A DNA stretch of 64,000 bases, from the NCBI GenBank assembly GCA_035485295.1, contig DATHOD010000174.1, positions 3,704 through 67,703 on the forward strand, in the 5' to 3' direction. This DNA comes from Bacteroidia bacterium. GTDB taxonomy: Bacteria > Bacteroidota > Bacteroidia > JABEUT01. Below are positions 10,433-58,592 of the stretch, piece by piece. The position numbers and the translations under genes were made by a program. Within the stretch, counting starts at the first letter, position 1. Every line of letters begins with the position of its first letter. Under the pieces are notes generated by a model. It had not been told where the DNA came from, did not search any database, and saw nothing but the letters and a program-made list of their open reading frames with translations.

Positions 10433-10488
10433 CAAAGATTGTATATGTATCAGCCGCTGATGTTATATTACTTTTAGAATAAGTTGCA
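10433..10488 (-). promoter_or_regulatory. bipartite module for the 9954 gene (minus strand): distal TGCAACT, 21 bp spacing, proximal TATAACA, N23, CTTTG, followed by GTGAAAACTAATTCACAC
   Basis: On the plus strand: CAAAG 10433-10437, TGTTATA 10461-10467, AGTTGCA 10482-10488. Same architecture as 20 other sites in the window. Confidence 0.55.
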
Positions 10489-10669
10489 TAATTGCCACAG
10501 GGTAGTTTAATGTAGGTTCCTAAATGGTTAACTGATAACCTAAGTACCATAAAAGGTTAGTATCATCTATTATACCTTTGCCAATGGAAATAAGCAGGTG
10601 GTGTTTCTCAGTATAATCAATGATGACTTTATATTGGGGACATTTATCAACTATAATTCAATAAATACT

Positions 10670-11458
10670 TTATTGGTTAAGTAATTTGAACAGGTCAGTT
10701 AAATCAGGTGATAAAATAATTTCAGTTCTGCGGTTCTTTGCTCTTCCTTCAGCAGTAATATTATCGGCCACAGGATAGTATTTAGACCTGCCTGATGCAA
10801 TAACATTATGCGGATTCACATTATAATCCTTAATAAGTATGCGCGTAATGGAGGTCGCTCTTGCGGTACTTAGAGCCCAGTTATCTTCATATTTCCCTGT
10901 CATGGGAATAGTGTCCGTATGTCCTTCAATGTCTATGGTAATACCTGTAGTTGTATTAAGTACGGTTGCTAATGTTTTCAATGCTTCCTTTCCTTTAGGA
11001 TCAACCTCTGCGCTGCCAGATTTGAATAGAAGTTTCTCTTGTAGTGAAACATAAAGTTTTCCATCTTTTAAAGTTACGGTTAGCTCATCAGGTTTAAAAT
11101 TAACTAGGGCATCTGCTACTGTTTTCTTAAGTTTATTCATCACATCTTTTTGTGCCTGAATAAGACCTTCCAGCGTTTTTAATCGCTTAGCCTGATCATC
11201 AATGGTCATATTAGAGTTCGCCTGATTAGACTGGTAGCTTACTGAGAGATCCTTTATGGAATTTTGCAAATCTACTTTGTCCTTTTCAAGTAATGCCACG
11301 TGTGAATTGCAGTCACTTAGTTTTGAATATGCGGCTGTACTGTCGTTCTGTAGTTTTTTAACTCTATTTCTGGAACTTATTAATTCTCTTTTTGGGACAC
11401 AACCGGTGACTATAATGGCAATAACGGATAGAAGTACAATGTATTTTTTCATGATCAT
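10670..11458 (-). CDS. OmpA-family lipoprotein (coiled-coil N-terminus, OmpA/MotB C-terminal peptidoglycan-binding domain)
   Basis: Lipobox VTGC; OmpA_C motifs NWALSTARATSI and GRAKNRRTEIIL. Confidence 0.8.
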   Translation of the reverse strand: MIMKKYIVLLSVIAIIVTGCVPKRELISSRNRVKKLQNDSTAAYSKLSDCNSHVALLEKDKVDLQNSIKDLSVSYQSNQANSNMTIDDQAKRLKTLEGLIQAQKDVMNKLKKTVADALVNFKPDELTVTLKDGKLYVSLQEKLLFKSGSAEVDPKGKEALKTLATVLNTTTGITIDIEGHTDTIPMTGKYEDNWALSTARATSITRILIKDYNVNPHNVIASGRSKYYPVADNITAEGRAKNRRTEIILSPDLTDLFKLLNQ

Positions 11459-11490
11459 TCTTTGTAAAGTGTGAATTAATTTTCACCGCG

Positions 11491-11546
11491 CAAAGATTGA
11501 TGAAGTTGAATGCATGGTTGTTATATGATTTCTGGAATATGTTACA
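11491..11546 (-). promoter_or_regulatory. bipartite module for the 10670 OmpA lipoprotein (minus strand)
   Basis: CAAAG 11491-11495, TGTTATA 11519-11525, TGTTACA 11540-11546 (21 bp apart). Shares the downstream block GTGAAAATTAATTCACAC with the 9954 gene. Confidence 0.55.
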
Positions 11547-11620
11547 ATATTTATGCGGACACACTAAGTTTTCATAGGAAATGGGACAATACACACCAAG
11601 AACCTTTGCCATATGATTTA

Positions 11621-11676
11621 TGTAAGGAAATCATACAAAAATGTAATACTGTAAAGGTTATATAGCTTCACCTTTG
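11621..11676 (+). promoter_or_regulatory. bipartite module for the CsbD-like gene at 11714
   Basis: TGTAAGG 11621-11627, TGTAATA 11642-11648 (21 bp apart), N23, CTTTG 11672-11676; ATG at 11714. Confidence 0.55.
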
Positions 11677-11713
11677 TTCCATAATTAGTTAATAAAATTC
11701 AAATCATAACATT

Positions 11714-11917
11714 ATGGAAACAACCCGAAGTAAAATAGCTGAATTCCCTAAAGCAAAAGGAAACTGGGATACTCTTTTAAGTAACCTGAAAAAGCATTTC
11801 GCATTACTTCCTGATGTGGAACATAAATTCACTTCCCCTCAAAAAAATGAATTGCTCAGTACGATAGAAGTGAGGTTGAATAGAAATCGTGAAGAGGTGA
11901 CTAACATTAGCAAGTAA
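11714..11917 (+). CDS. CsbD-like general stress protein (divergent)
   Basis: 67 aa with KGNWDTLLSNLKKHF…LLSTIEVRL…NREEV pattern like CsbD. Module upstream. Confidence 0.5.
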   Translation: METTRSKIAEFPKAKGNWDTLLSNLKKHFALLPDVEHKFTSPQKNELLSTIEVRLNRNREEVTNISK

Positions 11918-11968
11918 CTAACTGGCAGATAAAGTCTAAGTTGTCCTTATTTAAGGCAGCACATAAGG

Positions 11969-11995
11969 GCAGGTATAAACCTGCTCTTTCTTCTT
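11969..11995 (+). terminator. weak intrinsic terminator
   Basis: GCAGGT, loop ATAA, ACCTGC, then TCTTTCTTCTT. Confidence 0.35.
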
Positions 11996-12027
11996 GAATA
12001 GGTGGTAGCTTAATCATACAATAGAAT

Positions 12028-32176: not shown

Positions 32177-32244
32177 GTAAAATAGCCGCTATTTGCCAAA
32201 GCAAGTGTTACACAAGTTTTAGAATATATTATACAATTCACACA
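32177..32244 (-). promoter_or_regulatory. bipartite module (degenerate box) upstream of the tkt-rpiB-pgm-cyclic glucan synthase operon
   Basis: Minus-strand reading gives TGTGTGAATTGTATAA, 21 bp, TGTAACA, N23, CTATTTTAC. The distal 16-mer differs at 2 positions from TGTGTGAATAGTGTAA, found at 33111 and 54721. Confidence 0.45.
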
Positions 32245-33110: not shown

Positions 33111-33175
33111 TGTGAATAGTGTAAGTTAATTCCATCGCAGTATAACACTTCCTTGTTATAAGCTTATCACTTTTG
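33111..33175 (+). promoter_or_regulatory. bipartite module for the small gene at 33213
   Basis: TGTGTGAATAGTGTAAGT (distal TGTAAGT 33120-33126), TATAACA 33141-33147 (21 bp apart), N22, CTTTTG 33170-33175. Confidence 0.55.
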
Positions 33176-33458: not shown

Positions 33459-33478
33459 ATGAAAGGAAGTGTGAATTA

Positions 33479-33534
33479 TGTAACTATTCCCCAAAATGAT
33501 GTAATAGTTAACAAAACAGAATAAAGGAATTTTG
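33479..33534 (+). promoter_or_regulatory. bipartite module in front of the AraC-family regulator gene
   Basis: TGTAACT 33479-33485, TGTAATA 33500-33506 (21 bp apart), N23, TTTTG 33530-33534. Confidence 0.55.
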
Positions 33535-33579
33535 ATTAGTACGAGTAAATAAAATAATTTGAAGTTACACATTAAGTAT

Positions 33580-34140
33580 ATGGTAAGTAACCGCTGCAAG
33601 ATGGCGGTGAAAGAAGAATTAAATAAACTTGGCCTCCATTATGTAATTGTAGATTTAGGTGAAGTTGAAGTAATGGAAGACCTTTCTGTGTTGGAACTGG
33701 AACAGTTGAGAGCTGGTCTACAGGTATCGGGGCTTGAATTAATGGATGATAAGAAAGGTGTGATGATTGAAAAAATTAAAAACACCATTATTGAAATGAT
33801 ACATCATGCAGATGAGGCTATGAAAGTCAATTTATCGGACTACCTGAGCGAGAAACTGAAACACGACTATACTTACCTGGCAAACTTGTTTTCTGAAGTG
33901 CAAGGGATTACTATAGCCCAGTTTGTTGCTGCTCATAAAATAGAGAGGATTAAAGAACTGATAATGTATGATGAATTAAATATTACTGAAATTGCCTGGA
34001 AGATGAATTACAGCAGTGTAGCCCATTTATCTAATCAATTTAAGAAAGCAACCGGCTTTACTCCATCACAGTTTAAGCAATTGAAGGATAAGAAGAGAAT
34101 GCCAATTGAAGAAATTGGAAATTTAAACGGTACGAAATAA
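33580..34140 (+). CDS. AraC/XylS-family transcriptional regulator (short N-terminal domain plus C-terminal HTH_18)
   Basis: C-terminal two-HTH AraC signature …LANLFSEVQGITIAQFVAAHKIERIKELIM…ITEIAWKMNYSSVAHLSNQFKKATGFTPSQFKQ. The track ORF starts at a TTG (33559); ATG at 33580 or 33601 is more likely. Confidence 0.8.
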   Translation: MVSNRCKMAVKEELNKLGLHYVIVDLGEVEVMEDLSVLELEQLRAGLQVSGLELMDDKKGVMIEKIKNTIIEMIHHADEAMKVNLSDYLSEKLKHDYTYLANLFSEVQGITIAQFVAAHKIERIKELIMYDELNITEIAWKMNYSSVAHLSNQFKKATGFTPSQFKQLKDKKRMPIEEIGNLNGTK

Positions 34141-34159: not shown

Positions 34160-36379
34160 ATGGTTAAAACAAATAAAACAGATAAAGAAGCATTACTCGA
34201 TGCCCAAAAGGAACTTGTCTCGCAAAAGCAAGAGAAAGACAAGTTGCTTGCAGAGTTAGATAGTGCGAACAAAAAATTAGCCTTTCAGGATCAGGAGAAA
34301 GGAAAACGTGCGGCGGAGTTAGGTATTGCCAACAAGGAACTGGCCTTTCAAGACGGGGAGAAGGAGAAAAGGGCAGATGAATTAAGCATTGCTCATTCTA
34401 CAATATTAGCATCTCAATATGCCAGAAGTTTAATAGAAGCAAGTCTTGATCCGCTATTTACTATTAGCCCCGGAGGTAAGATTACTGATATGAATAATGC
34501 TTCAATAAACATTATAGAGTTATCGCGCGAGAAATTAATTGGCACAGACTTTTTTAAATATTTCACCGAACCCGATAAGGCTCGGAAAGGTTACCAGGAA
34601 GTCTTTGCAAAAGGTTTCGTGGCTGATTACCCTCTAACCATGATAGATGGGAAATTTACAGATGTATTGTTTAATGGCTCTGTTTATAAAGACGAAAATG
34701 GTCATGTGGTAGGTGCCGTTGTAGTGGCAAGGGATATTACTGACCAAAAAAGAATTGCTACAGAACTTACAGTAGCGAAAGTTGCTGCCGAATTGGCAAC
34801 TGCAATTGCTGAAGAAGCAAAGGGTAAAGCTGAAAATGCTACCCGTATTGCTGAAGATGCTGTGAAATCGAAACAGCAGTTCTTGTCGAATATGAGTCAC
34901 GAGATACGAACACCTATGAATGCCATTATAGGGTTTACTAAGGTGGTATTAAAGACAGAACTTACTGCAAAACAAAAGGAATATTTAATGGCTATTAAAA
35001 TGAGTGGTGATGCTCTTATTGTGCTCATAAATGATATTCTTGATCTTGCAAAGGTTGATGCGGGTAAAATGACATTTGAACAAACACCCTTTAAAATGGC
35101 ATTATCTATTTCTGCCATGCTGCATTTGTTTGAAACCAAAATTCAGGAGAAGAACCTAATTTTAGTTAAAGAATACGATAGCAAGATACCCGAAGTGCTT
35201 GTGGGTGACCCTGTACGCTTACACCAGATAATTTTAAACCTTGTTAGCAATGCAGTGAAGTTTACAACCAAAGGAAAGATAACAGTAAGTGTGAAATTGC
35301 TTAACGAAGATGAAGACAAAGTCACTATAAAGTTTGCTGTAACAGATACAGGCATAGGAATACCTACAAATAAAATAGGTAAGATCTTCGAGAACTTTCA
35401 GCAGGCATCGAGTGGCACATCAAGGTTATACGGCGGTACCGGTTTAGGCCTTGCAATAGTAAAGCAGTTAGTAGAACCGCAAGGTGGAACTATAAAAGTA
35501 GAAAGCAAGATAAATGAAGGTTCTACCTTTAGTTTTATACTCGATTTTCAGAAAACAAAAGAAAAGGCAGAAGCCGAGACTGATATTTTAGAAGTTGACC
35601 CGGAAATTAGAAACATTAAGGTATTAGTGGTTGAAGATATAGCACTTAATCAATTACTAATGAAAACACTGTTAGATGATTTTGGTTTTGAACGTGATAT
35701 TGCAGGAAATGGAAAAGTAGCAATAGAGAAACTAAAGGCAAAGACATATGATATTATACTTATGGATTTGCAAATGCCTGAAATGAATGGATTTGAGACC
35801 ACAGAATACATTCGCAATACCTTGAATTCTAAAATACCAATTATTGCATTAACCGCCGATGTAACAACCGTTGACCTGGCTAAATGCAAGGTAGTAGGCA
35901 TGAATGACTATATAGCAAAACCGGTTGATGAAAGGTTGTTATACAGTAAAATAGTAGGCCTGGTTAAGAAGCCGCCACATATAAAGGCTACCGAAGTAGT
36001 AGATGACCATAAGAAAGTAAAATGTATTGACCTGGCCTACCTGATACATCGTACAAAGTCTAACCCTAAGTTAATGATGGAAATGATATCACTTTACCTG
36101 GAACAGACTCCTCCTTTAATTTTAGCCATGAAACAAAGTTTACGTGATAAAGACTGGCATGCTCTGTATTCCGCAGCGCATAAAATGATCCCTTCGTTCC
36201 TAATTATGGGTATAAGCTCAGATTTTGAGAATATGGCAAAGAAAGTACAGGAATATGCCAGTACACAAAAGCAAACGGACGGAATACCTGACCTGGTAAT
36301 GCAACTTGAAAATGTATGTGAACAGGCATGTAAAGAATTACAAATAGAGTTTAATACAATTAAAAGCACAACTGTATGA
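34160..36379 (+). CDS. hybrid sensor histidine kinase / response regulator with C-terminal Hpt domain
   Basis: N-terminal triple coiled-coil repeat (ELxxANKxLAFQDxEKxKRAxEL, three times). PAS; HisKA H-box MSHEIRTPMNAIIGF; HATPase (GGTGLGLAIV). REC (VLVVEDIALNQ…ILMDLQMPEMNG). Hpt (YSAAHKMIPSF). Confidence 0.9.
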   Translation: MVKTNKTDKEALLDAQKELVSQKQEKDKLLAELDSANKKLAFQDQEKGKRAAELGIANKELAFQDGEKEKRADELSIAHSTILASQYARSLIEASLDPLFTISPGGKITDMNNASINIIELSREKLIGTDFFKYFTEPDKARKGYQEVFAKGFVADYPLTMIDGKFTDVLFNGSVYKDENGHVVGAVVVARDITDQKRIATELTVAKVAAELATAIAEEAKGKAENATRIAEDAVKSKQQFLSNMSHEIRTPMNAIIGFTKVVLKTELTAKQKEYLMAIKMSGDALIVLINDILDLAKVDAGKMTFEQTPFKMALSISAMLHLFETKIQEKNLILVKEYDSKIPEVLVGDPVRLHQIILNLVSNAVKFTTKGKITVSVKLLNEDEDKVTIKFAVTDTGIGIPTNKIGKIFENFQQASSGTSRLYGGTGLGLAIVKQLVEPQGGTIKVESKINEGSTFSFILDFQKTKEKAEAETDILEVDPEIRNIKVLVVEDIALNQLLMKTLLDDFGFERDIAGNGKVAIEKLKAKTYDIILMDLQMPEMNGFETTEYIRNTLNSKIPIIALTADVTTVDLAKCKVVGMNDYIAKPVDERLLYSKIVGLVKKPPHIKATEVVDDHKKVKCIDLAYLIHRTKSNPKLMMEMISLYLEQTPPLILAMKQSLRDKDWHALYSAAHKMIPSFLIMGISSDFENMAKKVQEYASTQKQTDGIPDLVMQLENVCEQACKELQIEFNTIKSTTV

Positions 36380-36804
36380 AGAATAAAATAAAACTCTTCC
36401 TTGTAGACGATGACGCAGTATTTTTAAAATCATTGGAGATTGAATTCATGGAACATGCAGACTTTGTAATTGAAACCTACGCTACCGGGGAATTATGCAT
36501 GGAAAATCTATCACACAACCCTGACGTAATTATATTAGATTACCATCTTGATGGTATTGATAAGAATGCAATGAATGGCCTGGCAACATTAGACAAAATA
36601 AAGGCATATAACCAGGATATACCAGTTGTTATGCTATCCTCACAAGATAAAATTGACGTTGCCGTAAACTGTATGCACCATAGAGCATTTGATTATGTGG
36701 TGAAGAGTGAAACTGCATTTATGCGCCTTCAAAAGATCATTACAACTATTTTTAGCTACCAGAAGATGCAAAAGACCTTGAACTGGTATATGGAGCGGAT
36801 GTAA
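36376..36804 (+). CDS. single-domain response regulator (CheY-like receiver)
   Basis: LFLVDDDAVFLKSL…VIILDYHLDG…MLSS: acidic pocket, phospho-Asp and T/S positions present. The ATGA overlaps the HK stop. Confidence 0.85.
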   Translation: MKNKIKLFLVDDDAVFLKSLEIEFMEHADFVIETYATGELCMENLSHNPDVIILDYHLDGIDKNAMNGLATLDKIKAYNQDIPVVMLSSQDKIDVAVNCMHHRAFDYVVKSETAFMRLQKIITTIFSYQKMQKTLNWYMERM

Positions 36805-38541: not shown

Positions 38542-38597
38542 CAAAGATGCCTCCATAAAACCTGGCGGGCATTACATCTATCTATCAAAAGGTTACA
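38542..38597 (-). promoter_or_regulatory. bipartite module for the 38251 gene (minus strand)
   Basis: On the plus strand: CAAAG 38542-38546, CATTACA 38570-38576, GGTTACA 38591-38597; 21 and 23 nt spacings. Confidence 0.55.
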
Positions 38598-38650
38598 TCT
38601 TTCCTATTTGGGCAGAAGAATATAATCGTAAGCGCAAATCAAGATAAATG

Positions 38651-38706
38651 TGTAAGGTTATTCTGTGTATGTGTAACACTCTAAAGTGTTGTATGCACAA
38701 TCTTTG
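38651..38706 (+). promoter_or_regulatory. bipartite module for the SHOCT/Usp operon
   Basis: TGTAAGG 38651-38657, TGTAACA 38672-38678, N23, CTTTG 38702-38706. The spacer carries the palindrome AACACTCTAAAGTGTT. Confidence 0.55.
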
Positions 38707-40024: not shown

Positions 40025-40051
40025 ATAGATCTAAGCTTGGGATGTGTTATA

Positions 40052-40107
40052 TGTAAAACACTACTATGCAAATGTAACACTTCACCAACTGAAGTGCATC
40101 ACTTTTG
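40052..40107 (+). promoter_or_regulatory. bipartite module for the 40148 gene
   Basis: TGTAAAA 40052-40058, TGTAACA 40073-40079, N22, CTTTTG 40102-40107, then GTGGAAATTCATTCAC 40115-40130. Confidence 0.55.
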
Positions 40108-41561: not shown

Positions 41562-41675
41562 TGTAGTTTTTTTAAATTTAAAGTACCTACAAAGGTCTAT
41601 TCTTCAAGTCATGTAGATATTATACTTGAATGGGGAAATATTATATAAGTCACACATTAAACCTGATAAGATATG

Positions 41676-41731
41676 TGTAAGCTTATTCTATATCTGTGTA
41701 ATGCTTTGCCGGACAAATGCCTCCACCTTTG
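41676..41731 (+). promoter_or_regulatory. bipartite module for the 41770 gene
   Basis: TGTAAGC 41676-41682, TGTAATG 41697-41703, N23, CTTTG 41727-41731, then CGTAATTATTTATTAATAA. Confidence 0.55.
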
Positions 41732-43241: not shown

Positions 43242-43487
43242 ATGTTACAAGTACACCCAGTAAGAACAGAAAAAGAACTGAATGAGGATATTTTAAGAAT
43301 AACACTATTGATACAGGATAAATATCCTGAGCTTTCAAAGTTTATAGGTGAAATGCCTGTTACTGTTCCCAATGCTAATGATACAGAATCAACTATTAAG
43401 AATCTGGAGAGTTACTATCATTCATTAAACTCATTATTATCGAACTATAACACTAGTCACGCAGAAGGGCTAAAGCTTAACGTGTGA
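43242..43487 (+). CDS. hypothetical 81-aa protein
   Basis: ORF only. Confidence 0.3.
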   Translation: MLQVHPVRTEKELNEDILRITLLIQDKYPELSKFIGEMPVTVPNANDTESTIKNLESYYHSLNSLLSNYNTSHAEGLKLNV

Positions 43488-43491
43488 TTAA

Positions 43492-43547
43492 TGTAAGGTT
43501 TTTCAATAAAAGTGTAATATCTAGAACAAGTTGAATATTCACCTTTG
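43492..43547 (+). promoter_or_regulatory. bipartite module for the 43574 gene
   Basis: TGTAAGG 43492-43498, TGTAATA 43513-43519 (21 bp apart), N23, CTTTG 43543-43547. Confidence 0.55.
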
Positions 43548-43878: not shown

Positions 43879-43917
43879 ATTTTCTATTACACCATCAGTG
43901 AGAAATTTGCAGATATG

Positions 43918-43973
43918 TGTAAACCTTTCCATTCAAACTGTAACAGCCACAGGGCTCAATCCACTGACTTTTG
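43918..43973 (+). promoter_or_regulatory. bipartite module for the 44011 gene
   Basis: TGTAAAC 43918-43924, TGTAACA 43939-43945, N22, CTTTTG 43968-43973, then CGTAATATTTATTAATAA. Confidence 0.55.
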
Positions 43974-46263: not shown

Positions 46264-46357
46264 GTAATAAAGTAGTAATCAACTTTTATGACAGGGCTGA
46301 TATAGAAATATATCGGCCCTGCTTCTTTTAAGTGAACTGGCTATTTATGAGAAGGAT

Positions 46358-46412
46358 GTAACATATTCCAATTGTTGTATAACATCCAAAGGACAGGGCA
46401 CATCTAATTTTG
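46358..46412 (+). promoter_or_regulatory. bipartite module (variant) for the 46452 OmpA-family gene
   Basis: TGTAACA 46358-46364, TGTATAACA 46376-46384, N23, TTTTG 46408-46412. Confidence 0.45.
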
Positions 46413-49870: not shown

Positions 49871-52231
49871 ATGGAGGAAAAAGTAATGGAGAAGCTTGTA
49901 AGTGTGAGGCCTGCAAAATCGAAAAGAAAGAAAATACTTATTATACTAAGTAGTATTATCATTTTAATTCCAATCGTTATTATTATTTGTATTTCGCCAA
50001 TAACTAAATACTTGGTAGAAAAGTATAGTGTAAAGTATATTGGTAGGCAAGTTAAAATGGATTGGGCCTATGTAAATCCATTTACTGGATATGCTTACTT
50101 CAAGAATCTAAAAATAAATGAATTTGAAAGCGATAGCATATTTATATCTGCAAATGGTGCAAGTGCTACATTCAGTTTGCTTAAACTATTCTCAAGAACA
50201 TGCGAAATCACTCAAATTACATTAGATCAGCCAAACATTATAATTATAGAATCACAAAAGGATGTGAATTTTTATGACCTTATACAAAGGTTCAAGCCCA
50301 AGGACACAATAAGTACAAATTCTCCATTTCATGTTAATGTGCTAAATATGAAAATCGTTAATGGGGTTTTACGCTACCGCGATAACCGTGTACCCGTTAA
50401 TTATTCTGTAGTACACCTGGATATTGAGAGTCCGGGATTGCAATGGAATATGGACACCTTAGCTGCAAAGGTTTCTTTGTTATCGGGAAATGGTGCAGGG
50501 GGAATAAAGGGCCATATTACAATTAACCTAAAAACCCTTGATTATAAGCTTGATGCAGTTATAGATAAACTTGAATTAGAATTTCTTAATCAGTATCTTA
50601 AAACAATGTCTAATTATGGCAGTTTTAGGGCGAACCTTGATGCAGATATTAAAGCCAATGGTAGTTTTAAAGATGCTGAGAATATGGAAGCTAAAGGCCA
50701 GGTTGTAATAAGTGATTTTCATTTCGGCGAGGATTCAGAAAGGGATTTTGCTTCCTTTAAAAAGTTTACACTAAGGGTCAATGCGTTGAACCCTAAGAAT
50801 AAGGAATATTTAATTGATTCCGTATCACTAAGTCACCCATATTTCAAATTCGAGCAGTACGATTATTTGAATAATGTTGAGCGTATGTTTGAACAAAAGG
50901 GAGAGGCAGTGCAACAAGGGGTAGGGAAGTTCAACTTGATTGTAGCTATAGGTAATTATATAAAAGAATTGTCACAAAACTTTTTCAGGAGTAACTATAC
51001 GGTAACCCATTTGGCTGTTTATAATGGTGACTTTCTATATGATGATTTTTCGCTAAACGAGAAATTCGCTATAGCTGCTAACCCAGTATATATAAGAGCT
51101 GATTCTATAAAAAAGACTAATTCCAGGGTAAAAATATCCTTTAACACCGGTATTAAGCCTTATGGCTCTGGTACAATTAATCTAAGTGTTGATCCTCAGG
51201 ATAGCTCAGACTTTGATTTAAATTATAATCTTAAAAAAATACCTATTTCCATATTTAATCCCTACCTTATCGCATATACTTCCTTCCCATTAGATATGGG
51301 CACATTGGAACTTAATGGTACATGGAAAGTAAGAGAAGGGGTAATACAAAGCGATAACCACTTACTGGTTATTGATCCACGCATAGGACAGCGTGTAAAA
51401 AATAAAAACAACCACTGGCTTCCAATGCGACTGGCTATGTTTTTGATAAAGGAAGAAGATAACGTGATAGATTATCAAATACCGATCACAGGAAATTTGA
51501 AGAGCCCTTCTTTTCATCTTCATGAAGTGGTTATGGATATTATACGGAACATCTTCGTGAAACCTGCTACTTCGGTATATAGAACCGAAGTGAAAAACAG
51601 GGAAGATGAAATTGAACAATCTATGACTCTTAAATGGGAAACCCGGCAGTTTTCCTTATCAGGATACCAGAGAAGGTTTTTGGATAAAACGGAAAAATTT
51701 CTGGAAGAAAACCCCACTTCTTCGGTTCTCATATCGCCTGAGTTATATGAAGCAAAGGAGAAAGAAGGAATATTGTTCTACGAGGCTAAGAAGAAGTATT
51801 ATCTATCAATTAATCAGGGGGAAACCAGGCCATTCAGCGAAGATGACTCTGAACATGTAGAAAGAATGTCAATAAGGGACTCTATGTTTATACGTTATTT
51901 AAATAAGCACCTTACTCATGCTCTTGAGTTTACTTTACAAGATAAATGCGCTAGTCTTATAGGTGTAGCAGTGATTAATACTAAATTCAATCAGCTAACT
52001 AAGAATAGAAAGAATGCCTTTCTTTCTTATTTTAAGGATAAAGATGTTGGAACGCGAGTAAAATTCAGCCCCATTCAAAATAACATCCCATACAACGGCT
52101 TTTCGTATTATAAGATCGAATTCAAGGGTGAATTGCCTGACTACTTGATTAAAGCCTATGCAAAAATGGCTGAACTAAATACCAGGAGTCCCCGCGAAAA
52201 GTATAGCAAAGAGAGGAAAAGCATTTTGTAG
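49871..52231 (+). CDS. large N-terminally membrane-anchored protein, AsmA/DUF748-like (tentative)
   Basis: 786 aa; one N-terminal TM helix (ILIILSSIIILIPIVIIICI) and a long periplasmic beta-rich region. Family assignment is uncertain. Confidence 0.35.
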   Translation: MEEKVMEKLVSVRPAKSKRKKILIILSSIIILIPIVIIICISPITKYLVEKYSVKYIGRQVKMDWAYVNPFTGYAYFKNLKINEFESDSIFISANGASATFSLLKLFSRTCEITQITLDQPNIIIIESQKDVNFYDLIQRFKPKDTISTNSPFHVNVLNMKIVNGVLRYRDNRVPVNYSVVHLDIESPGLQWNMDTLAAKVSLLSGNGAGGIKGHITINLKTLDYKLDAVIDKLELEFLNQYLKTMSNYGSFRANLDADIKANGSFKDAENMEAKGQVVISDFHFGEDSERDFASFKKFTLRVNALNPKNKEYLIDSVSLSHPYFKFEQYDYLNNVERMFEQKGEAVQQGVGKFNLIVAIGNYIKELSQNFFRSNYTVTHLAVYNGDFLYDDFSLNEKFAIAANPVYIRADSIKKTNSRVKISFNTGIKPYGSGTINLSVDPQDSSDFDLNYNLKKIPISIFNPYLIAYTSFPLDMGTLELNGTWKVREGVIQSDNHLLVIDPRIGQRVKNKNNHWLPMRLAMFLIKEEDNVIDYQIPITGNLKSPSFHLHEVVMDIIRNIFVKPATSVYRTEVKNREDEIEQSMTLKWETRQFSLSGYQRRFLDKTEKFLEENPTSSVLISPELYEAKEKEGILFYEAKKKYYLSINQGETRPFSEDDSEHVERMSIRDSMFIRYLNKHLTHALEFTLQDKCASLIGVAVINTKFNQLTKNRKNAFLSYFKDKDVGTRVKFSPIQNNIPYNGFSYYKIEFKGELPDYLIKAYAKMAELNTRSPREKYSKERKSIL

Positions 52232-52236
52232 TTATT

Positions 52237-52292
52237 TGTAAGATTGGAGCATAATAGTGTAACACTTCTAAGAGTAGCTATTTCCAGCTTTG
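52237..52292 (+). promoter_or_regulatory. bipartite module for the 52334 gene
   Basis: TGTAAGA 52237-52243, TGTAACA 52258-52264 (21 bp apart), N23, CTTTG 52288-52292, then palindrome ATCGCAAATGCGAT before the ATG. Confidence 0.55.
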
Positions 52293-52333: not shown

Positions 52334-52894
52334 ATGAAAACTACACCATTAAACTTATCAGTTCTTGATAAGAACTCAATTATCATAGGTCCACTCAGTA
52401 CTTACCTTAACACCAGGTTCGGTGAAAGGATCAATATAACTCCATATTCAGATGCTGAACTATGCATGCAGTTTATTGACGATGACTCACATGTAATTAT
52501 CCTTGATTATTTTATAAATCATGAAGATAGAACCGGCACCAAAGGATTAAAGCTATTTGAAACAATGAAAAAGCGTAACCCAGGGAGTAAGATAACCATG
52601 CTAAGCTCAAGGGAAGATATTGATGTGGCTACCGAGGAGATGCAGCAAGGTGCCAGCAAATACATTATGAAGAACGAAAGGGGATTATACGATATAAGGT
52701 TTGTGCTGGATAAAGCTGTAAGGCCAATGAAAACAATCGTAATTCCGGTTATAACACTCCCAATAAGAAAACTAGTGCATTATTATAACTTGAAATCATA
52801 CCTAATGATGTTCCTTGTAGCATTTATATCTGTAGGTATCCTGGTAATTGCAGGGTACGTTGGCCTGAAATTCGCACACTTATTAAATATATAG
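52334..52894 (+). CDS. membrane-anchored pseudo-receiver (REC-like domain lacking the acidic pocket, with a C-terminal TM helix)
   Basis: VIILDYFINHEDRTGTKGLKLFETMKK…KITMLSSREDIDVA parallels the receiver at 36376 (VIILDYHLDG…VVMLSSQDKIDVA). N-terminus lacks the DD pair. C-terminus LMMFLVAFISVGILVIAGYVGL. Confidence 0.5.
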   Translation: MKTTPLNLSVLDKNSIIIGPLSTYLNTRFGERINITPYSDAELCMQFIDDDSHVIILDYFINHEDRTGTKGLKLFETMKKRNPGSKITMLSSREDIDVATEEMQQGASKYIMKNERGLYDIRFVLDKAVRPMKTIVIPVITLPIRKLVHYYNLKSYLMMFLVAFISVGILVIAGYVGLKFAHLLNI

Positions 52895-52912
52895 TCGAAT
52901 AATACAAAACAT

Positions 52913-52958
52913 TCTAACAATTGTATAATAATGCTAAGTGCGATGGTATCCAACTTTG
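52913..52958 (+). promoter_or_regulatory. bipartite module (variant) for the 52992 gene
   Basis: TGTATAATA 52923-52931, N22, CTTTG 52954-52958. Distal half-site weak. Confidence 0.35.
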
Positions 52959-52991: not shown

Positions 52992-53246
52992 ATGAACATT
53001 ATAACTTATGGCTTAACAGGCGCAGGGGTATTTGTACTCTTTATCATAATATACTCTTATATAGAGACCCATTATAAAAAGAAAACGTACAAGATGAAAC
53101 TGGAGGAAAGGTTAAAAAGCGAAATGGACACAGAGGAAGATTATCGCCACAAGCTATCTGATACAATACCTATCAGCAATGAGAAATCATTAAGCCATAA
53201 AGAAGATGCCCGTAAAGATGAAATAAAAACAGCGATAAAATTATAG
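52992..53246 (+). CDS. small membrane protein (N-terminal TM, charged tail)
   Basis: MNIITYGLTGAGVFVLFIIIYSYI then a K/E-rich tail. Confidence 0.4.
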   Translation: MNIITYGLTGAGVFVLFIIIYSYIETHYKKKTYKMKLEERLKSEMDTEEDYRHKLSDTIPISNEKSLSHKEDARKDEIKTAIKL

Positions 53247-53247
53247 A

Positions 53248-53303
53248 TGTAACATATACATAAGTATGTGTAACACTCTACCGGTTGAACTGCCACATCT
53301 TTG
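53248..53303 (+). promoter_or_regulatory. bipartite module for the 53343 CsbD-like gene
   Basis: TGTAACA 53248-53254, TGTAACA 53269-53275 (21 bp apart), N23, CTTTG 53299-53303, then CGTAATAATTTAATAATAC. Confidence 0.6.
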
Positions 53304-53342: not shown

Positions 53343-53633
53343 ATGGAAACAACTCAAAACAAAACTTCTGAAACAACTCAAAACAAGACTCCAGAAGCAA
53401 CTCAGAGCAAAACCCCGGAAGCAACCCAATCTACTGAATCATTTAAAGTGACCGGTAACTGGGCTACTAAATCACAAGAACTTAAGTCTCAATATTCAAC
53501 CCTTACCGATTCAGACGTAAAGTTTGAAACAGGTAAAGAAAGTGAACTATTAGGCAGGTTACAAACCAAGTTAGGTAAGAACCGTGAAGAGGTAATTGCT
53601 TTGATTAAGCAAACCGAAACTATACAAGCTTAA
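53343..53633 (+). CDS. CsbD-like stress protein with N-terminal ETTQNKT/EATQSKTP tandem repeats
   Basis: C-terminal half VTGNWATKSQELKSQYSTLTDSDVKFETGKESELLGRLQTKLGKNREEV has the CsbD pattern. N-terminal 8-aa repeats. Confidence 0.6.
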   Translation: METTQNKTSETTQNKTPEATQSKTPEATQSTESFKVTGNWATKSQELKSQYSTLTDSDVKFETGKESELLGRLQTKLGKNREEVIALIKQTETIQA

Positions 53634-53719: not shown

Positions 53720-53838
53720 ATAAAACTGAGATAATGATAAGAAAAAGATAAGGAGTTTAAAATATTCCTTTTTATCGGATACTCATAAAAGAGCGCTTAA
53801 TGGCGCTCTTTGCTTTTTAGGGAAGTTAGCAGGAATAG

Positions 53839-53894
53839 TGTAACCTAATCAGGCAATTATGTAACAATAGTAAGCCAGAGCTAATAGACCTTTG
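53839..53894 (+). promoter_or_regulatory. bipartite module for the 53934 gene
   Basis: TGTAACC 53839-53845, TGTAACA 53860-53866, N23, CTTTG 53890-53894, then GTGAAAATTCATTCA 53901-53915. Confidence 0.6.
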
Positions 53895-54689: not shown

Positions 54690-54731
54690 GTAATCTTGTT
54701 TTTATACAAAATGGGGTATATGTGTGAATAG

Positions 54732-54787
54732 TGTAATATATATGCACAGTTATGTAATACTTATAAGTGCTAAGGTAGGCACCTTTA
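54732..54787 (+). promoter_or_regulatory. bipartite module (box variant CCTTTAC) for the 54837 gene
   Basis: TGTGTGAATAGTGTAATA (TGTAATA 54732-54738), TGTAATA 54753-54759 (21 bp apart), N23, CTTTA 54783-54787. Confidence 0.5.
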
Positions 54788-54836: not shown

Positions 54837-56459
54837 ATGAAAAATAAACTATCTAATATGCTTACAGTTGCTATGCTACTGGTAATTCCTTCTCTTAGTT
54901 TTGCACAAGCACCAACGCTTGGTACAGCAGCTGATTTTGTTCTGTTTACTACTAACGGAGCAGTAAAGAATACTGGCACATCTCAACTTACAGGTAATGT
55001 AGGGACCAATAATGGATCTAACACAGGCTTCGGCAATGTAAATGGTGTTATGCACGCTAAAGATGCAGCAACTGCAAAATGCGATTCAAATGTACTGGTT
55101 GCTTATGGCCAATTAAAAGCTGATGTTCCTACTTTCTTTCCTTCTGCTTCAATGGGAAATGGGGATACACTTATACCAGGTGTTTATTCTATTGCTGCTG
55201 CTGCAACGTTGAATTTGAACCTTTATTTAAATGCAAAAGGGAATCCAAATGCAGTGTTTGTGTTTCAAATAGGTGGGCCGCTTTCAACCGGCGCATTATC
55301 TAAAGTAAAATTGATTAATGGTGCATTAGCATGTAATGTGTATTGGAAAGTAGAAGGCCTGGTAAGTATGGCTGCGGGTTCTACCATGCGCGGAACAATT
55401 ATTATAAACAATGCGGCTATTAATATGAACACTGGTGATACACTTGAAGGCAGAGCGCTTTCTATTGCAGGTGCAGTTACAGTAAGTGGAATACTTGCTT
55501 ACACCCCGATAGGTTGTAGTAGCCCTACGTTAACAGGCCCGGCGGCTCCAACGCTTGGTGCAGCAGGATGTTATGCAGTTTTTTCTACCGATGGCGCTGT
55601 AACTAATTCCGGAACAACACACTTAACCGGCGATGTAGGAACAAATGTAGGCCTAACCACAGGGTATAATGCAGTTGACGTAACTGGTACCATACATCCT
55701 AAACCGGATGGTTCAACTGCTGTTTGCGCGTCAGATCTGCTTTCTGCTTACAATTACCTTAATACTCTTCCATACGATATTGAATTATTGTATCCTGCCC
55801 AGTTTGGCCATAACCTGGTACTTACTCCTCATACGTATATTATGAAATCGGCAGTCACTTTTACCGATTCTCTTTATCTGAATGCTGAAAATGATCCGGC
55901 AGCCATATTTGTAATACAAGTAAACGGTGCTTTTGCTACCAGTACCTTTTCAAAGGTTATTTTAATAAATGGTGCACAGGCCGCAAACGTGTATTGGGTA
56001 ATAAATGGGGCAGTAAGTATTAACAAGTTCTCTACTTTTAATGGAACTGTTGTTTGCAATAACGGCGCAATTAACGTGGTTACCGGAGCTGTGATCAATG
56101 GCAGAGTTCTTACCACTAAGGGCCAGGTAACAACTGATACAATTACGGTTACAGCCTCAGCTATTCCGGGCAATTGTTCAACAGTAGGAATTCAGAATAT
56201 TAATGCAGATGATGAATCAGTTACTCTGTATCCTAACCCATTCAGGTCTTCTTTAGCTATTAAAATAAGCGACAATGCAATTCTAAATAATTGCAATTTG
56301 ACTATTTATAATGTACTTGGACAAGAAGTATTGAAAATGGATATTACCGAGCATTCAACTACTGTTGAAACAAGTAAGCTGATCTCGGGAATTTACTTTT
56401 ATAAGGTAATTGAGAATAACAATGTAATACAATCAGGCAAGTTGATATCACAACAGTAA
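54837..56459 (+). CDS. secreted protein with two tandem DUF3494 ice-binding-like domains and a T9SS C-terminal sorting domain
   Basis: Two repeats of …NAVFVFQIGGPLSTGALSKVKLINGALACNVYWKVEG… and …AIFVIQVNGAFATSTFSKVILINGAQAANVYWVINGAVS…GRVLTTKGQVT. CTD …VTLYPNPFRSSLAIKIS…GIYFYKVIENNNVIQSGKLISQQ. Confidence 0.7.
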   Translation: MKNKLSNMLTVAMLLVIPSLSFAQAPTLGTAADFVLFTTNGAVKNTGTSQLTGNVGTNNGSNTGFGNVNGVMHAKDAATAKCDSNVLVAYGQLKADVPTFFPSASMGNGDTLIPGVYSIAAAATLNLNLYLNAKGNPNAVFVFQIGGPLSTGALSKVKLINGALACNVYWKVEGLVSMAAGSTMRGTIIINNAAINMNTGDTLEGRALSIAGAVTVSGILAYTPIGCSSPTLTGPAAPTLGAAGCYAVFSTDGAVTNSGTTHLTGDVGTNVGLTTGYNAVDVTGTIHPKPDGSTAVCASDLLSAYNYLNTLPYDIELLYPAQFGHNLVLTPHTYIMKSAVTFTDSLYLNAENDPAAIFVIQVNGAFATSTFSKVILINGAQAANVYWVINGAVSINKFSTFNGTVVCNNGAINVVTGAVINGRVLTTKGQVTTDTITVTASAIPGNCSTVGIQNINADDESVTLYPNPFRSSLAIKISDNAILNNCNLTIYNVLGQEVLKMDITEHSTTVETSKLISGIYFYKVIENNNVIQSGKLISQQ

Positions 56460-56519: not shown

Positions 56520-56534
56520 TATCTACCTTATATA

Positions 56535-56590
56535 TATAACTATTACTTAAAGTTATGTAACAGCTGAAATAGCCTAAATACGCAGCTTTG
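56535..56590 (+). promoter_or_regulatory. bipartite module for the 56630 gene
   Basis: Proximal TGTAACA 56556-56562, N23, CTTTG 56586-56590, then GTGAAAATTATTTCACAC. Distal half-site weak (TATAAC 56535-40). Confidence 0.5.
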
Positions 56591-56629
56591 TATCGTCGTG
56601 AAAATTATTTCACACATAAAACAAAAATC

Positions 56630-57268
56630 ATGAAAAAGTTATTTATCGCAATAAGTTTATTGTCAATGTTCTTTGGAACAAGAGTAATGGCTCAGGATGG
56701 AACTGATCCAAGGGAAGATCTTACATTTGGTTTAAAGGTGGGAGCCAACTATTCTAATGTTTACGATGCACAAGGACAAAACTTTGTCGCAGACTCTAAA
56801 GTTGGTTTTGCAGGTGGGGTATTTTTAGGAATACCATTAGGCAAATATTTAGGTTTTCAACCTGAAGCCCTGATATCGCAAAAAGGATTCCAGGGATCAG
56901 GGATATTAGAAGATGAACCATACTCTTTTACCAGAACTACTACCTACCTGGATATTCCACTATTACTGCAATTAAAACTTACTCCATGCCTAACTATATT
57001 AGCAGGACCGCAATATTCTTACTTATTGAGTGAGAAGGATGTGTATACATATGGTGCAAATAGCGCTGCCCAGGAACAGGATTTTTCAAATGATAATATA
57101 CGGAAAAACATTTTTGGCTTTGTTGTTGGTGCTGATGTTAGCATTTCGCACTTCCTTATTTCAGGAAGAGCAGGCTGGGATTTGCAAACCAATAATGGTA
57201 ATGGCACTTCTTCTACGCCTCAATACAGAAATCAATGGTTACAATTAACTGTAGGCTTTAAGGTTTAA
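56630..57268 (+). CDS. outer membrane beta-barrel protein (porin-family / OmpW-like small barrel)
   Basis: Signal peptide MKKLFIAISLLSMFFGTRVMAQ; alternating amphipathic strands; C-terminal …WLQLTVGFKV ending in an aromatic residue. Confidence 0.7.
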   Translation: MKKLFIAISLLSMFFGTRVMAQDGTDPREDLTFGLKVGANYSNVYDAQGQNFVADSKVGFAGGVFLGIPLGKYLGFQPEALISQKGFQGSGILEDEPYSFTRTTTYLDIPLLLQLKLTPCLTILAGPQYSYLLSEKDVYTYGANSAAQEQDFSNDNIRKNIFGFVVGADVSISHFLISGRAGWDLQTNNGNGTSSTPQYRNQWLQLTVGFKV

Positions 57269-57294
57269 CCAGTAAAGTAAATAAACCAGTAAGC

Positions 57295-57330
57295 TCTCTA
57301 TCCTATAAACAGGATAGGGGGCTTTCGCTT
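57295..57330 (+). terminator. intrinsic terminator
   Basis: CTCTATCCT, loop ATAAAC, AGGATAGGGG, then CTTTCGCTTT. Confidence 0.5.
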
Positions 57331-57358
57331 TGTAAGATATTCATCAAATCGGGATTTA

Positions 57359-57414
57359 TGTAATTAATCCCAATAGTTATGTAACACTTAAGGATAGCCG
57401 GATGTTCACTTTTG
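57359..57414 (+). promoter_or_regulatory. bipartite module for the 57460 gene
   Basis: TGTAATT 57359-57365, TGTAACA 57380-57386 (21 bp apart), N22, CTTTTG 57409-57414. Confidence 0.55.
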
Positions 57415-57459
57415 TACCATTGCAGAAATTCTTTTGTAATCGTTAATTAAAATCTAATA

Positions 57460-58041
57460 ATGAAAAAAATATTCCAACAACTCCTGGTACTAACGGCATC
57501 AACTGTATTGCTATCATCATGCGCTAATATTTCTAAATTATCACTAACAAAAAGGCACTACAGAAGCGGCTACTTTGTTGATTTTGGAAGTAGTAAGCAT
57601 ATTACACCTATTACTGTAATACACAGGAAGCCTCAAAATGAAACTTTAACCCCGGTAACGGCAAAATCTGCGCAACCAGTTGTAACAACTGCCGCAATAA
57701 TTGCAACCAATGAAGTAAACACAGCTCCTTCAAATATAGTCCCTAAGACAAAAAAGGTGAATGCAGCTAAAATAGCAAGTGCAAATGCGACAGCTCATGT
57801 AGCACTGGCAATTACGGCATCACCAACTACTTATGCGAAAGACGAATCAGACTTAGATCATCATACTCAGGTTGATGTTAATGTATCGTTTGTGGTTATT
57901 GTGCTTTGTGCCATATTTATACCACCACTTGGTGTAGCACTAATGTATGGTATTACTACTTATTTCTGGATCGACTTGATCTTAACACTGCTTTTTTTCT
58001 TCCCGGGAATGATATTCGCTCTGATAGTCGTTCTTAGTTAG
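57460..58041 (+). CDS. lipoprotein fused to a C-terminal YqaE/Pmp3 (UPF0057, RCI2-like) proteolipid domain
   Basis: Lipobox LLSSC. The last ~55 aa, IFIPPLGVALMYGITTYFWIDLILTLLFFFPGMIFALIVVL, match the Pmp3/RCI2 stress proteolipid family. Confidence 0.65.
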   Translation: MKKIFQQLLVLTASTVLLSSCANISKLSLTKRHYRSGYFVDFGSSKHITPITVIHRKPQNETLTPVTAKSAQPVVTTAAIIATNEVNTAPSNIVPKTKKVNAAKIASANATAHVALAITASPTTYAKDESDLDHHTQVDVNVSFVVIVLCAIFIPPLGVALMYGITTYFWIDLILTLLFFFPGMIFALIVVLS

Positions 58042-58080
58042 AAAGAATAAAATCATTAATCAAATAAATAATAAAACATC

Positions 58081-58233
58081 ATGGGAAATCTATTGTACGT
58101 AATAGCAGTAATACTAATCATTTGCTGGCTAATTGGCTTTGTAGGATACGGAGCAGGTGGGTTAATCCACATACTACTTGTAATTGCCATAATAGCTGTT
58201 ATTATGCGTGTAATTCAAGGTAAAAAACTATAA
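58081..58233 (+). CDS. lmo0937-family small membrane protein (50 aa, absent from ORF track)
   Basis: MGNLLYVIAVILIICWLIGFVGYGAGGLIHILLVIAIIAVIMRVIQGKKL, the characteristic two-helix pattern of this widespread small-protein family. Confidence 0.55.
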   Translation: MGNLLYVIAVILIICWLIGFVGYGAGGLIHILLVIAIIAVIMRVIQGKKL

Positions 58234-58257
58234 TCTAATATTCTAACAATAATATAT

Positions 58258-58524
58258 ATGGATATTTCAAATAACTCAGGAAAAATAATTGGCGCCTTAT
58301 TAATGGGAGCTGCAATTGGCGGTGTACTTGGAATTCTATTTGCTCCTGATAAAGGCAGCAAGACTAGAAGGAGAATAATTGGCAATGCAGAAGACATTAC
58401 CGATGCAATGCAGGATAAATTCAACGAATTTCTTGATGAGATAAAAGAAGAAGTTGAAGCCGTTAAGCTTAAGGCAGAGATTTTTATTGGAGACGGTACA
58501 CCTAAGAACCATAAACTAAAATAA
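58258..58524 (+). CDS. YtxH-domain protein
   Basis: IGALLMGAAIGGVLGILFAPDKGSKTRRRI then a helical acidic tail: the YtxH/DUF948 pattern. Confidence 0.65.
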   Translation: MDISNNSGKIIGALLMGAAIGGVLGILFAPDKGSKTRRRIIGNAEDITDAMQDKFNEFLDEIKEEVEAVKLKAEIFIGDGTPKNHKLK

Positions 58525-58537
58525 GAACATTAAGAAT

Positions 58538-58592
58538 GTAACTTATTTCGGATTATGTGTAATACTAAGCCGGAATCAAGTTACCACTTTTG
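58538..58592 (+). promoter_or_regulatory. bipartite module for the 58633 mini-gene
   Basis: TGTAACT 58538-58544, TGTAATA 58558-58564, N22, CTTTTG 58587-58592, then GTAGAAATTCATTAACA 58600-58616. Confidence 0.55.

Follow-up and report, generated by a model that had tools for sequence, protein, structure and literature searches.

The window analysed here, 64,000 nucleotides of contig DATHOD010000174.1 from a Bacteroidia bacterium (G+C content 38%), contains 22 copies of a 65-bp promoter module, gathered in an island of 48 kb and each located upstream of a gene on the same strand. The module consists of two direct repeats followed by a TTTG box, and it recurs in the same register across orders of the Bacteroidota. 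That the motif and the regulon are real and conserved is, in our view, as good as certain. With moderate confidence we also propose a full mechanism, in which the modules would be activator-dependent sigma-A promoters of a phylum-wide stress and envelope regulon, under the control of an AraC-type activator with an HMA-like amino-terminal domain and of a phosphorelay.

A sequence-only reading of the window, made by a model, had listed 21 anchors for a recurring bipartite module. These were a mixture of plus-strand proximal half-sites and minus-strand reverse-complement coordinates; re-set to the T that opens the proximal TGTAACA, all 21 are real sites in one rigid register, 17 on the plus strand and four on the minus strand. 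A position weight matrix (PWM), spanning −28 to +35 relative to the proximal T and used to scan 128 kb of sequence, revealed a 22nd module that was absent from the list, on the minus strand with its proximal T at 41624 (32.9 bits). At 22/22 sites the distal T(G/A)TAA begins 21 bp before the proximal TGTAACA, exactly the offset that had been claimed, and the TTTG box 31 bp after it. The distal and proximal half-sites are direct repeats exactly two helical turns apart, also as claimed, with sub-boxes TGTGAAT and TGTAAC spaced 9 bp. Two elements had been described too narrowly. The distal TGTAA core is present, but the true element is longer, with aATGTGTGAATnATGTAAC as its phylum-wide consensus; the third box does contain TTTG, but in the full form cAnCTTTG rather than CTTTTG alone, with A (+28) in 20/21 sites, TTT in 21/21 and the final G in 19/21. 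About 5 nt past this G, near the predicted start site, a G-T dinucleotide is enriched. The orientation given for both strands was correct, as every site is upstream of a same-strand open reading frame (ORF), with 55–84 nt from the proximal T to the ATG (22/22). Three divergent pairs of modules share one intergenic region each (11525/11642, 38576/38672 and 41624/41697). Tandem repeats with a period of about 21 bp, each with two sub-boxes, and a proximal repeat at the −35 region of the predicted promoter are the layout of a class II activator site.

The 22 sites score 33–54 bits with the full PWM, and in leave-one-out scoring the 21 sites listed earlier retain at least 25 bits. The runner-up non-site position in the window has 9.7 bits and the maximum over 100 Markov shuffles is 13.8 bits, setting the motif well apart from shuffled sequence. 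A strict pattern in IUPAC code matches 14 times in the window, compared with 0.00 expected from 100 dinucleotide shuffles. The modules, each with the gene or operon it is predicted to drive, and the genes of the candidate regulator's operon are the following (coordinates in the window; the leader palindrome is described further below):

Module 1, 10433..10497, minus strand: 146-residue lipoprotein (10394-9954); leader palindrome GTGAAAACTAATTCAC after the TTTG box.
Module 2, 11491..11555, minus strand: OmpA-family lipoprotein (11458-10670); leader palindrome.
Module 3, 11612..11676, plus strand, divergent from module 2: 67-residue protein (11714-11917).
Operon of module 3, 11714 to about 19220, plus strand: 67-residue protein, 958-residue transaldolase/PGI fusion, HAD, Gnd, Zwf and Pgl.
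Module 4, 32178..32242, minus strand: transketolase (32157-30067).
Operon of module 4, 32157-19250, minus strand: transketolase, RpiB, phosphoglucomutase and a 2896-residue cyclic beta-1,2-glucan synthase-like protein (GH94 + GT2).
Module 5, 33111..33175, plus strand: 81-residue protein (33213-33458).
Module 6, 33470..33534, plus strand: AraC-family gene, making it the candidate regulator's own promoter.
Candidate regulator, 33559..34140, plus strand: 193 residues, TTG start; HMA/Atx1-like amino-terminal domain, linker helix and AraC/MarA-type domain with a pair of helix-turn-helix (HTH) motifs.
Hybrid histidine kinase, 34160..36379, plus strand: cytoplasmic; coiled coil, PAS, HisKA, HATPase, REC and a carboxy-terminal HPt-like segment.
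Receiver-only response regulator, 36376..36804, plus strand: 142 residues.
Module 7, 38542..38606, minus strand: protein of 89-101 residues (38520/38556-38251).
Module 8, 38642..38706, plus strand: 82-residue membrane protein, weakly matched by SHOCT (38740-38988), followed by a tandem Usp protein (39077-40024).
Module 9, 40043..40107, plus strand: 151-residue secreted protein (40148-40603); leader palindrome.
Module 10, 41590..41654, minus strand, the site absent from the earlier list, divergent from module 11: PAP2_C membrane phosphatase (41561-40899).
Module 11, 41667..41731, plus strand: 67-residue Ser/Lys-rich hydrophilic protein (41770-41973), then HAD-like, 207-residue and 81-residue proteins.
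Module 12, 43483..43547, plus strand: 83-residue secreted protein (43574-43825).
Module 13, 43909..43973, plus strand: 750-residue protein with a type IX secretion system (T9SS) sorting domain (44011-46263).
Module 14, 46348..46412, plus strand: 676-residue outer-membrane protein (OMP) barrel/OmpA protein (46452-48482).
Operon of module 14, up to 52231, plus strand: the OMP, then CsbD, Dps/ferritin, a REC protein and a DUF748 protein.
Module 15, 52228..52292, plus strand: 186-residue protein with a receiver domain (52334-52894).
Module 16, 52894..52958, plus strand, both half-sites degenerate (TACAA / TATAAT): 84-residue membrane protein (52992-53246).
Module 17, 53239..53303, plus strand: 96-residue hydrophilic protein with a weak CsbD match (53343-53633).
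Module 18, 53830..53894, plus strand: ice-binding-like lipoprotein (53934-54689); leader palindrome.
Module 19, 54723..54787, plus strand, TTTA replacing TTTG: ice-binding-like protein with a T9SS tail (54837-56459).
Module 20, 56526..56590, plus strand: OMP beta-barrel protein (56630-57268); leader palindrome.
Module 21, 57350..57414, plus strand: Pmp3-domain lipoprotein (57460-58041), then DUF5670 and YtxH proteins.
Module 22, 58528..58592, plus strand: 39-residue His-rich lipoprotein (58633-58752), then AI-2E transporter and MlaE/F/D.

So many copies in one 48-kb stretch might suggest dispersed repeats, remnants of a mobile element or structured RNAs. The spacer columns contain only about 0–0.2 bits each, however, and as the spacers are nearly free of information the module is not a dispersed repeat or miniature inverted-repeat transposable element; it has a binding-site architecture with unrelated spacers, as the sequence-only reading had it. 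The copies are also in register across orders, before homologous genes, and the place of the module is upstream of where transcription is predicted to start. At the Rfam gathering threshold, the only match is a tRNA gene that does not overlap any module (9660-9731, plus strand, between metG and module 1; RF00005, 64.6 bits), while an Rfam E-value scan of 32000-59000 gave three chance-level matches (E = 0.5–1), none of them on a module. We regard this explanation as practically excluded.

To assess conservation, the strict pattern was scanned in one genome per species (185,579 species), in which at least 120 loci matched; the evidence on conservation and linkage is drawn from loci (8-kb genome loci and metagenome loci). 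The same module, with the same spacing, is found across Bacteroidota orders. The matches listed are nearly all from Bacteroidota (Bacteroidales, Chitinophagales, Cytophagales, Flavobacteriales, Sphingobacteriales and Saprospirales), with Flavobacterium fluvii DSM 19978, Pedobacter sp. PLR, Arenibacter arenosicollis and Pelobium manganitolerans as cultured carriers among them, and most of these Bacteroidota matches score 25–60 bits. In 47 sites that were not selected by the pattern, the consensus is aATGTGTGAATnATGTAACttttt..a.aaTTrTGTAACAntt-N17-cAcCTTTG. The geometry is equally rigid elsewhere: in 200 other loci, the distal-to-proximal distance is 21 bp in 162/163 sites and the proximal-to-TTTG distance 31 bp in 152/163, with the fixed-register PWM under-scoring the approximately 6% of sites whose proximal-to-box spacing is 30 bp. 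The ORFs downstream of these other modules include 16 ice-binding-like proteins, eight OmpA lipoproteins, eight CsbD, seven DUF5670, three YtxH and two AraC proteins.

Outside the Bacteroidota, two metagenome-assembled genomes (MAGs) of Ignavibacteria contain high-scoring modules (L101, 1330, plus strand, 36.7 bits; L102, 4122, plus strand, 37.4 bits), suggesting that the system may extend to other members of the Fibrobacterota–Chlorobiota–Bacteroidota (FCB) group. Among the matches listed, eight with labels of other phyla (Bacilli, Bacillales, Oceanobacillus, two Clostridiales, Lachnospiraceae, Nostoc and Halarcobacter) reach less than 18 bits on the positions left unspecified by the pattern, and five labelled Saccharibacteria, Akkermansia, Absconditabacterales, 'bacterium' and 'uncultured bacterium' score 21–45 bits. 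The Saccharibacteria-labelled locus, L124, has three modules and a regulator 73% identical to that of the window, making it probably a mis-binned Bacteroidota contig.

The TTTG box had been described as '−33-like', and this part of the earlier description does not hold. Judged by its sequence, it is the −7 box of Bacteroidota sigma-A promoters (nAnCTTTG) and not a −33 element. At four sites the distance from the end of TTTG to the ATG is 20–28 nt, so that a start site about 33 nt downstream would land in coding sequence, and no conserved −7-like box is observed downstream of TTTG, either in the window alignment or in the phylum-wide sites. TAnnTTTG is the sigma-A box at −12 to −5 in F. psychrophilum and flavobacteria (PMC9723704) and the canonical −7 element in Bacteroides (PMC7366714); a row of the B. 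thetaiotaomicron start-site table reads TACGTTTG, then 4 nt, then the start site. In the 47 unselected sites, the A at +28 and the TTT at +31 to +33 are invariant and +34 is G or A, in agreement with TAnnTTTG apart from its first T, which is not conserved (mostly C in the window; A4, C20, G13 and T10 phylum-wide). No TTTG is conserved 17–23 bp upstream of the box, where a −33 element would be expected; the proximal TGTAACA sits there instead. Exact TAnnTTTG is present at 2/20 of the listed gene starts examined in the window, which has too few non-regulon promoters, and for this reason the −7 assignment is taken from the literature. With TTTG as the −7 box, the predicted start site is at about +39 from the proximal T, placing the proximal repeat at about −39/−33 and the distal repeat at about −60.

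The mostly C first position of the box in the window, where TAnnTTTG has T, would also suit an alternative sigma factor of the extracytoplasmic function (ECF) type, for which TGTAAC would be the −35 element, the TTTG box the −10 element and the distal copy an auxiliary or UP-like element. ECF promoters have GAAC-type −35 elements, which TGTAAC loosely resembles, and the general stress regulons of other phyla are run by sigma factors. Against this, the gap between TGTAAC and the box is 21 bp rather than 16–17 bp, with nothing conserved at the ECF −10 position, and the box retains the sigma-A signature A-nn-TTTG, its first position being unspecific phylum-wide. Such a promoter would not explain why a full repeat recurs exactly 21 bp upstream, and no sigma or anti-sigma gene, let alone a linked pair, is found in the window or the annotated orthologous neighbourhoods. 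An ECF-like promoter therefore seems improbable to us.

The sequence-only reading had proposed an activator of the AraC/XylS or OmpR type. The island does encode an AraC/XylS-type protein (33559-34140), with a module in its own promoter, making this type the best candidate; the OmpR-type alternative falls away, as the window has no winged-helix gene and the approximately 60 proteins no Trans_reg_C match. This 193-residue protein is the sole DNA-binding protein among the approximately 60 window ORFs annotated by Pfam, and a relaxed-threshold Pfam search of the window revealed no sigma, LytTR, OmpR/winged-helix or other DNA-binding domain besides it. It belongs to the AraC/XylS family by its HTH_18 (E = 8e-16) and HTH_AraC (E = 5e-9) matches. 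In an AlphaFold model (predicted local distance difference test score 85), residues 85-179 form a helical carboxy-terminal domain, and Foldseek matches the protein to AraT, MarA, SoxS, AdpA and the AraC DNA-binding domain; among the best sequence matches of this domain in the Protein Data Bank (PDB) is a 'hybrid two-component system protein'. Residues 1-62 are modelled as a beta-alpha-beta-beta-alpha-beta fold, with only weak matches to HMA domains of the Atx1/HAH1 type (E = 0.05–0.1), and contain a single Cys and no CxxC motif. Neither a cupin nor a ToxT/Rns-like domain, known at the amino-terminus of AraC-family proteins and not required for membership of the family, is recognized in the regulator.

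Homologues of the regulator number in the thousands. The best 120 are 73–100% identical, with names such as Crocinitomicaceae, Saprospirales, Prolixibacteraceae and Cytophaga on those that are labelled; the listed homologues with labels from several Bacteroidota lineages are 73–92% identical and have a nearly invariant second HTH segment. Among the matches listed, the regulator gene is present in 27/120 random motif-bearing 8-kb loci, compared with about 0.2 expected (an estimate from an assumed genome size), and the kinase gene in 23/120. Orthologous regulator loci bear the same module in the same register and are set among CsbD, DUF5670, YtxH, SHOCT, BON, AI-2E and ice-binding genes. In metagenome loci, the distal element is found upstream of 50/74 orthologues, compared with about 3.4 expected, and the full module scores more than 18 bits upstream of 42/75. 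The 193-residue AraC-type protein is most likely the activator of the module, with its binding to the repeats predicted from sequence and linkage.

Further homologues were noticed in these loci. A second homologue of the regulator is present on the same 8-kb locus in L028, L048, L078 and L093, and a shorter HTH_18 paralogue of 179 residues is paired with a protein of 150-170 residues in L001 (1842-2381) and L207 (7126-7665); such paralogues may share the motif or divide it between them. A host-associated Bacteroides fragilis MAG (L080) encodes a diverged homologue with 41% identity (3210-2662) and has a weaker, module-like site on the same strand (738, minus strand, 23.5 bits); gut Bacteroides may keep a diverged version of the system.

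The site could instead belong to a different transcription factor encoded outside the window (an AraC paralogue, a LytTR-type or an unknown protein), with the operon of AraC, kinase and REC genes being a mere target. A 21-bp period of direct repeats is compatible with several activator families, LytTR-type response regulators among them. The extra receivers in the window (49387 and 52334) are targets themselves, and second AraC paralogues are found near the regulator in several genomes. We nevertheless think this unlikely: apart from the AraC paralogues and a Trans_reg_C gene in L002, which is not conserved in the other orthologous neighbourhoods, no other DNA-binding domain was detected in the 48-kb island or in five Pfam-annotated neighbourhoods; the regulator gene is present in 27/120 random motif loci; and its near-invariant HTH segments parallel a near-invariant motif across orders.

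The genes downstream of the regulator point to its signalling partners. L001, L004/5, L206 and L207 preserve the succession of AraC, hybrid kinase and REC genes, the kinase gene is directly 3' of the AraC orthologue in 40/52 metagenome loci, and the 142-residue receiver has orthologues of 70–86% identity located after the kinase gene. This receiver, with D55, the Asp in ILDYHL, as its predicted phospho-site, is likely to be the end point of a phosphorelay. The relay appears to end on a receiver without output domain, next to an AraC protein without receiver, which suggests control by protein-protein contact. A LOV-type PAS domain was considered for the kinase and rejected, as the NCRFL motif is absent. 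Two more receivers are encoded in the regulon, both on the plus strand: a 130-residue receiver-only protein after Dps (49387-49779) and the 186-residue protein (52334-52894), in whose carboxy-terminal 70 residues no domain is recognizable by Pfam at relaxed thresholds. Conservation of the latter beside the regulator was rejected; the apparent cases are cross-matches to orthologues of the 142-residue receiver. The two extra receivers suggest feedback or branching in the phosphorelay.

In the mechanism we propose, cAnCTTTG would be the −7 box, at about −12 to −5, with transcription starting about 5 nt past its G. The proximal repeat aaTTrTGTAACA (about −39 to −33) would stand in for the missing −33 TTTG, and the stronger distal repeat TGTGAATnATGTAAC would be located exactly 21 bp upstream, at about −69 to −55. 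One regulator protomer would bind each of the two 15-bp direct repeats, in tandem, with its two HTH motifs on two sub-boxes 9 bp apart, and the promoter-proximal protomer would touch RNA polymerase in the manner of class II activators, such as AraC at araI1-I2 and XylS at Pm. The regulator itself has no receiver domain; what sets its activity is probably the cytoplasmic phosphorelay co-transcribed with it, in which the signal would pass from the PAS hybrid kinase to its REC domain, on to the HPt-like segment and finally to the 142-residue receiver-only protein. The latter would act on the HMA-like amino-terminal domain of the regulator via protein-protein contact. By activating its own operon, the regulator would establish positive feedback.

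Several points weigh against this mechanism. Where transcription starts is extrapolated from other members of the Bacteroidota. The modelled amino-terminal domain is unlike known dimerization or ligand domains of the AraC family and, being of an unfamiliar type, leaves dimerization and tandem binding as assumptions. The distal element is missing upstream of 24/74 orthologues and about a third have no recognizable module, so autoregulation would be common, not universal; the same absence would suit a different factor. The second AraC paralogues could share or own the motif, and linkage and autoregulation are also expected if the AraC protein is a mere member of the regulon. Finally, AraC-family proteins can repress, and a site over the −35 region might be a repressor operator: the proximal site lies over the place of the −33 element, and its occupancy at −39/−33 by the same protein would block RNA polymerase until stress. 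This last reading has little to recommend it, since the promoters are devoid of a −33 TTTG of their own, as activator-dependent promoters are, the single-bp rigidity between proximal repeat and −7 box (31 bp in most sites of other loci) is expected of a polymerase contact and unneeded for occlusion, and a module in the regulator's own promoter fits positive feedback. Activation by the AraC-type protein remains the mechanism we prefer.

Among known systems, the module is most like the binding sites of AraC at araI1-I2 and XylS at Pm: it has two direct repeats with a 21-bp period, two sub-boxes for each protomer, and a proximal site that abuts or overlaps the −35 region as in class II, and the candidate regulator has a DNA-binding domain of the same family. 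The araI1-araI2 site has the class II activation layout. XylS binds two 15-bp direct repeats, each made up of a box A and a box B, via two recognition helices (PMC5481539). Unlike in those systems, the core is a Bacteroidota sigma-A promoter with a TAnnTTTG −7 box, the amino-terminal domain is modelled as an HMA/Atx1-like fold of about 60 residues rather than a cupin or ligand domain, the input probably comes from a phosphorelay and not from a small molecule, and the regulon is large and conserved in the phylum rather than a single catabolic operon. The combination of histidine kinase, receiver and AraC-type output is shared with the hybrid two-component systems of Bacteroides. These are single polypeptides, however, while here the functions are divided over three cytoplasmic proteins, the AraC protein lacking a receiver and the terminal receiver lacking an output domain, and the targets are stress and envelope genes instead of polysaccharide-utilization loci.

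In its gene content (CsbD, YtxH, Dps, Usp, small hydrophilic and envelope proteins), the regulon overlaps with those of PhyR-NepR-EcfG and Bacillus sigma-B, and as in these systems kinase-receiver signalling probably ends in a protein-protein switch and the master regulator is autoregulated. The difference is that no sigma or anti-sigma factor is seen here, where an AraC-type activator would work with the housekeeping sigma factor. The master sigma factor with partner switching of the sigma-B, RpoS and EcfG regulons was not found, although the Pmp3, CsbD, YtxH, Dps and Usp content is similar; the system thus resembles a general stress response without being a member of these systems. PM2 of B. 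thetaiotaomicron is, like the module, an orphan promoter motif of the Bacteroidota, associated with stationary-phase and oxidative-stress genes and with an unknown recognizing factor (PMC7366714). Unlike the module, it is near-palindromic, has −10 and −30 boxes and occurs mostly at start sites that are internal or antisense (PMC7366714). We considered PM2 as a prior description of the module and take it to be probably different, the two being set apart by the description of PM2 and not base by base (PMC7366714).

Pfam annotation of the window bears out the earlier view of the targets, most of which belong to stress and envelope functions. Each of the 22 promoters stands before a single gene or an apparent operon, and most operon-internal genes have no recognizable promoter of their own. 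The four CsbD proteins that had been counted reduce to one clear (48531) and one weak (53343, E = 0.01) match, the 67-residue proteins at 11714 and 41770 having none. The two ice-binding-like proteins in the window belong to PF11999, and several of the small hydrophilic target proteins have no assigned family. Two metabolic operons, unflagged in the sequence-only reading, begin with modules 3 and 4, tying glucan synthesis and NADPH supply to the regulon. Judged by gene content, the output of the regulon would comprise cyclic beta-1,2-glucan synthesis, the pentose-phosphate pathway, Usp and Dps, as well as small proteins of the CsbD/YtxH type, ice-binding-like surface proteins, OmpA and OMP-barrel proteins, lipid phosphatases and Mla.

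Further features were noticed around these genes. A leader palindrome, GTGAAAATTCATTCAC, begins 4–7 nt past the TTTG box, at the predicted +1, and is present at the predicted 5' ends 10428, 11486 (minus strand), 40112, 53899, 56595, 57419 and 58597 (plus strand); in the regulon it is confined to genes for secreted proteins, lipoproteins and OMPs. Elsewhere it is found at 19/148 motif promoters of other genomes, compared with 2.2 expected (loci L006, L007, L010, L033, L045, L054, L064, L082, L104, L106, L108, L113, L117 and L124), with variants that preserve pairing through G-U pairs (GCAGAA..TTTTGT) or compensatory change (GCGAA..TTCGC). The palindrome could be a 5'-terminal mRNA hairpin or the operator of a second factor. 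The genes for small hydrophilic proteins have in common an AT-rich leader, (C)GTAATnATTTATTAATAA(C)T(C)AAA, which follows the modules at 11642, 38672, 41697, 43939, 46378, 52924 and 53269 and may be the A/T-rich translation-initiation context of Bacteroidota or a separate leader element. The 39-residue lipoprotein that is the first gene past module 22 (58633-58752, plus strand) has a His-rich tail, …GRPHGGGDHHEGHHDDRH. Just outside the island, a gene for a SiaC-family (DUF1987) phosphoprotein adjoins a DUF6272 gene (6536-7477, minus strand), with no module upstream; the two look like a signalling pair of the partner-switch type.

The sequence-only reading could not match the motif to a known regulon, and we found none either in the full-text literature searched or in Rfam; in the same full-text search, neither the motif nor the regulator nor a general stress response of Bacteroidota was found described. 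Class II activation by AraC-type proteins is a well-known class of mechanism. What looks new is a phylum-wide stress regulon without apparent alternative sigma factor, the HMA-AraC domain architecture, and the division of the pathway into a phosphorelay, a receiver-only protein and an AraC regulator. To our knowledge, the Bacteroidota have no general stress system of the RpoS, sigma-B or EcfG type, and no other protein has been described as their master regulator of stress survival. It is a possibility, which we put forward tentatively, that the system is the missing general stress response of this phylum and perhaps of the wider FCB group: independent of alternative sigma factors, built on a near-invariant HMA-AraC activator and a receiver-only partner switch at the end of the phosphorelay, with the module marking out its regulon in thousands of genomes.

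The 65-bp signature is easy to scan for and yields a single candidate regulator, its signalling partners and a conserved list of targets. In the cultured carriers, deletion of the regulator and a read-out of the module-bearing genes are possible. The module would also supply a stress-inducible promoter part for the engineering of Bacteroidota. Many of the conserved target proteins are of unknown function, and the module would give dozens of orphan families a stress context.

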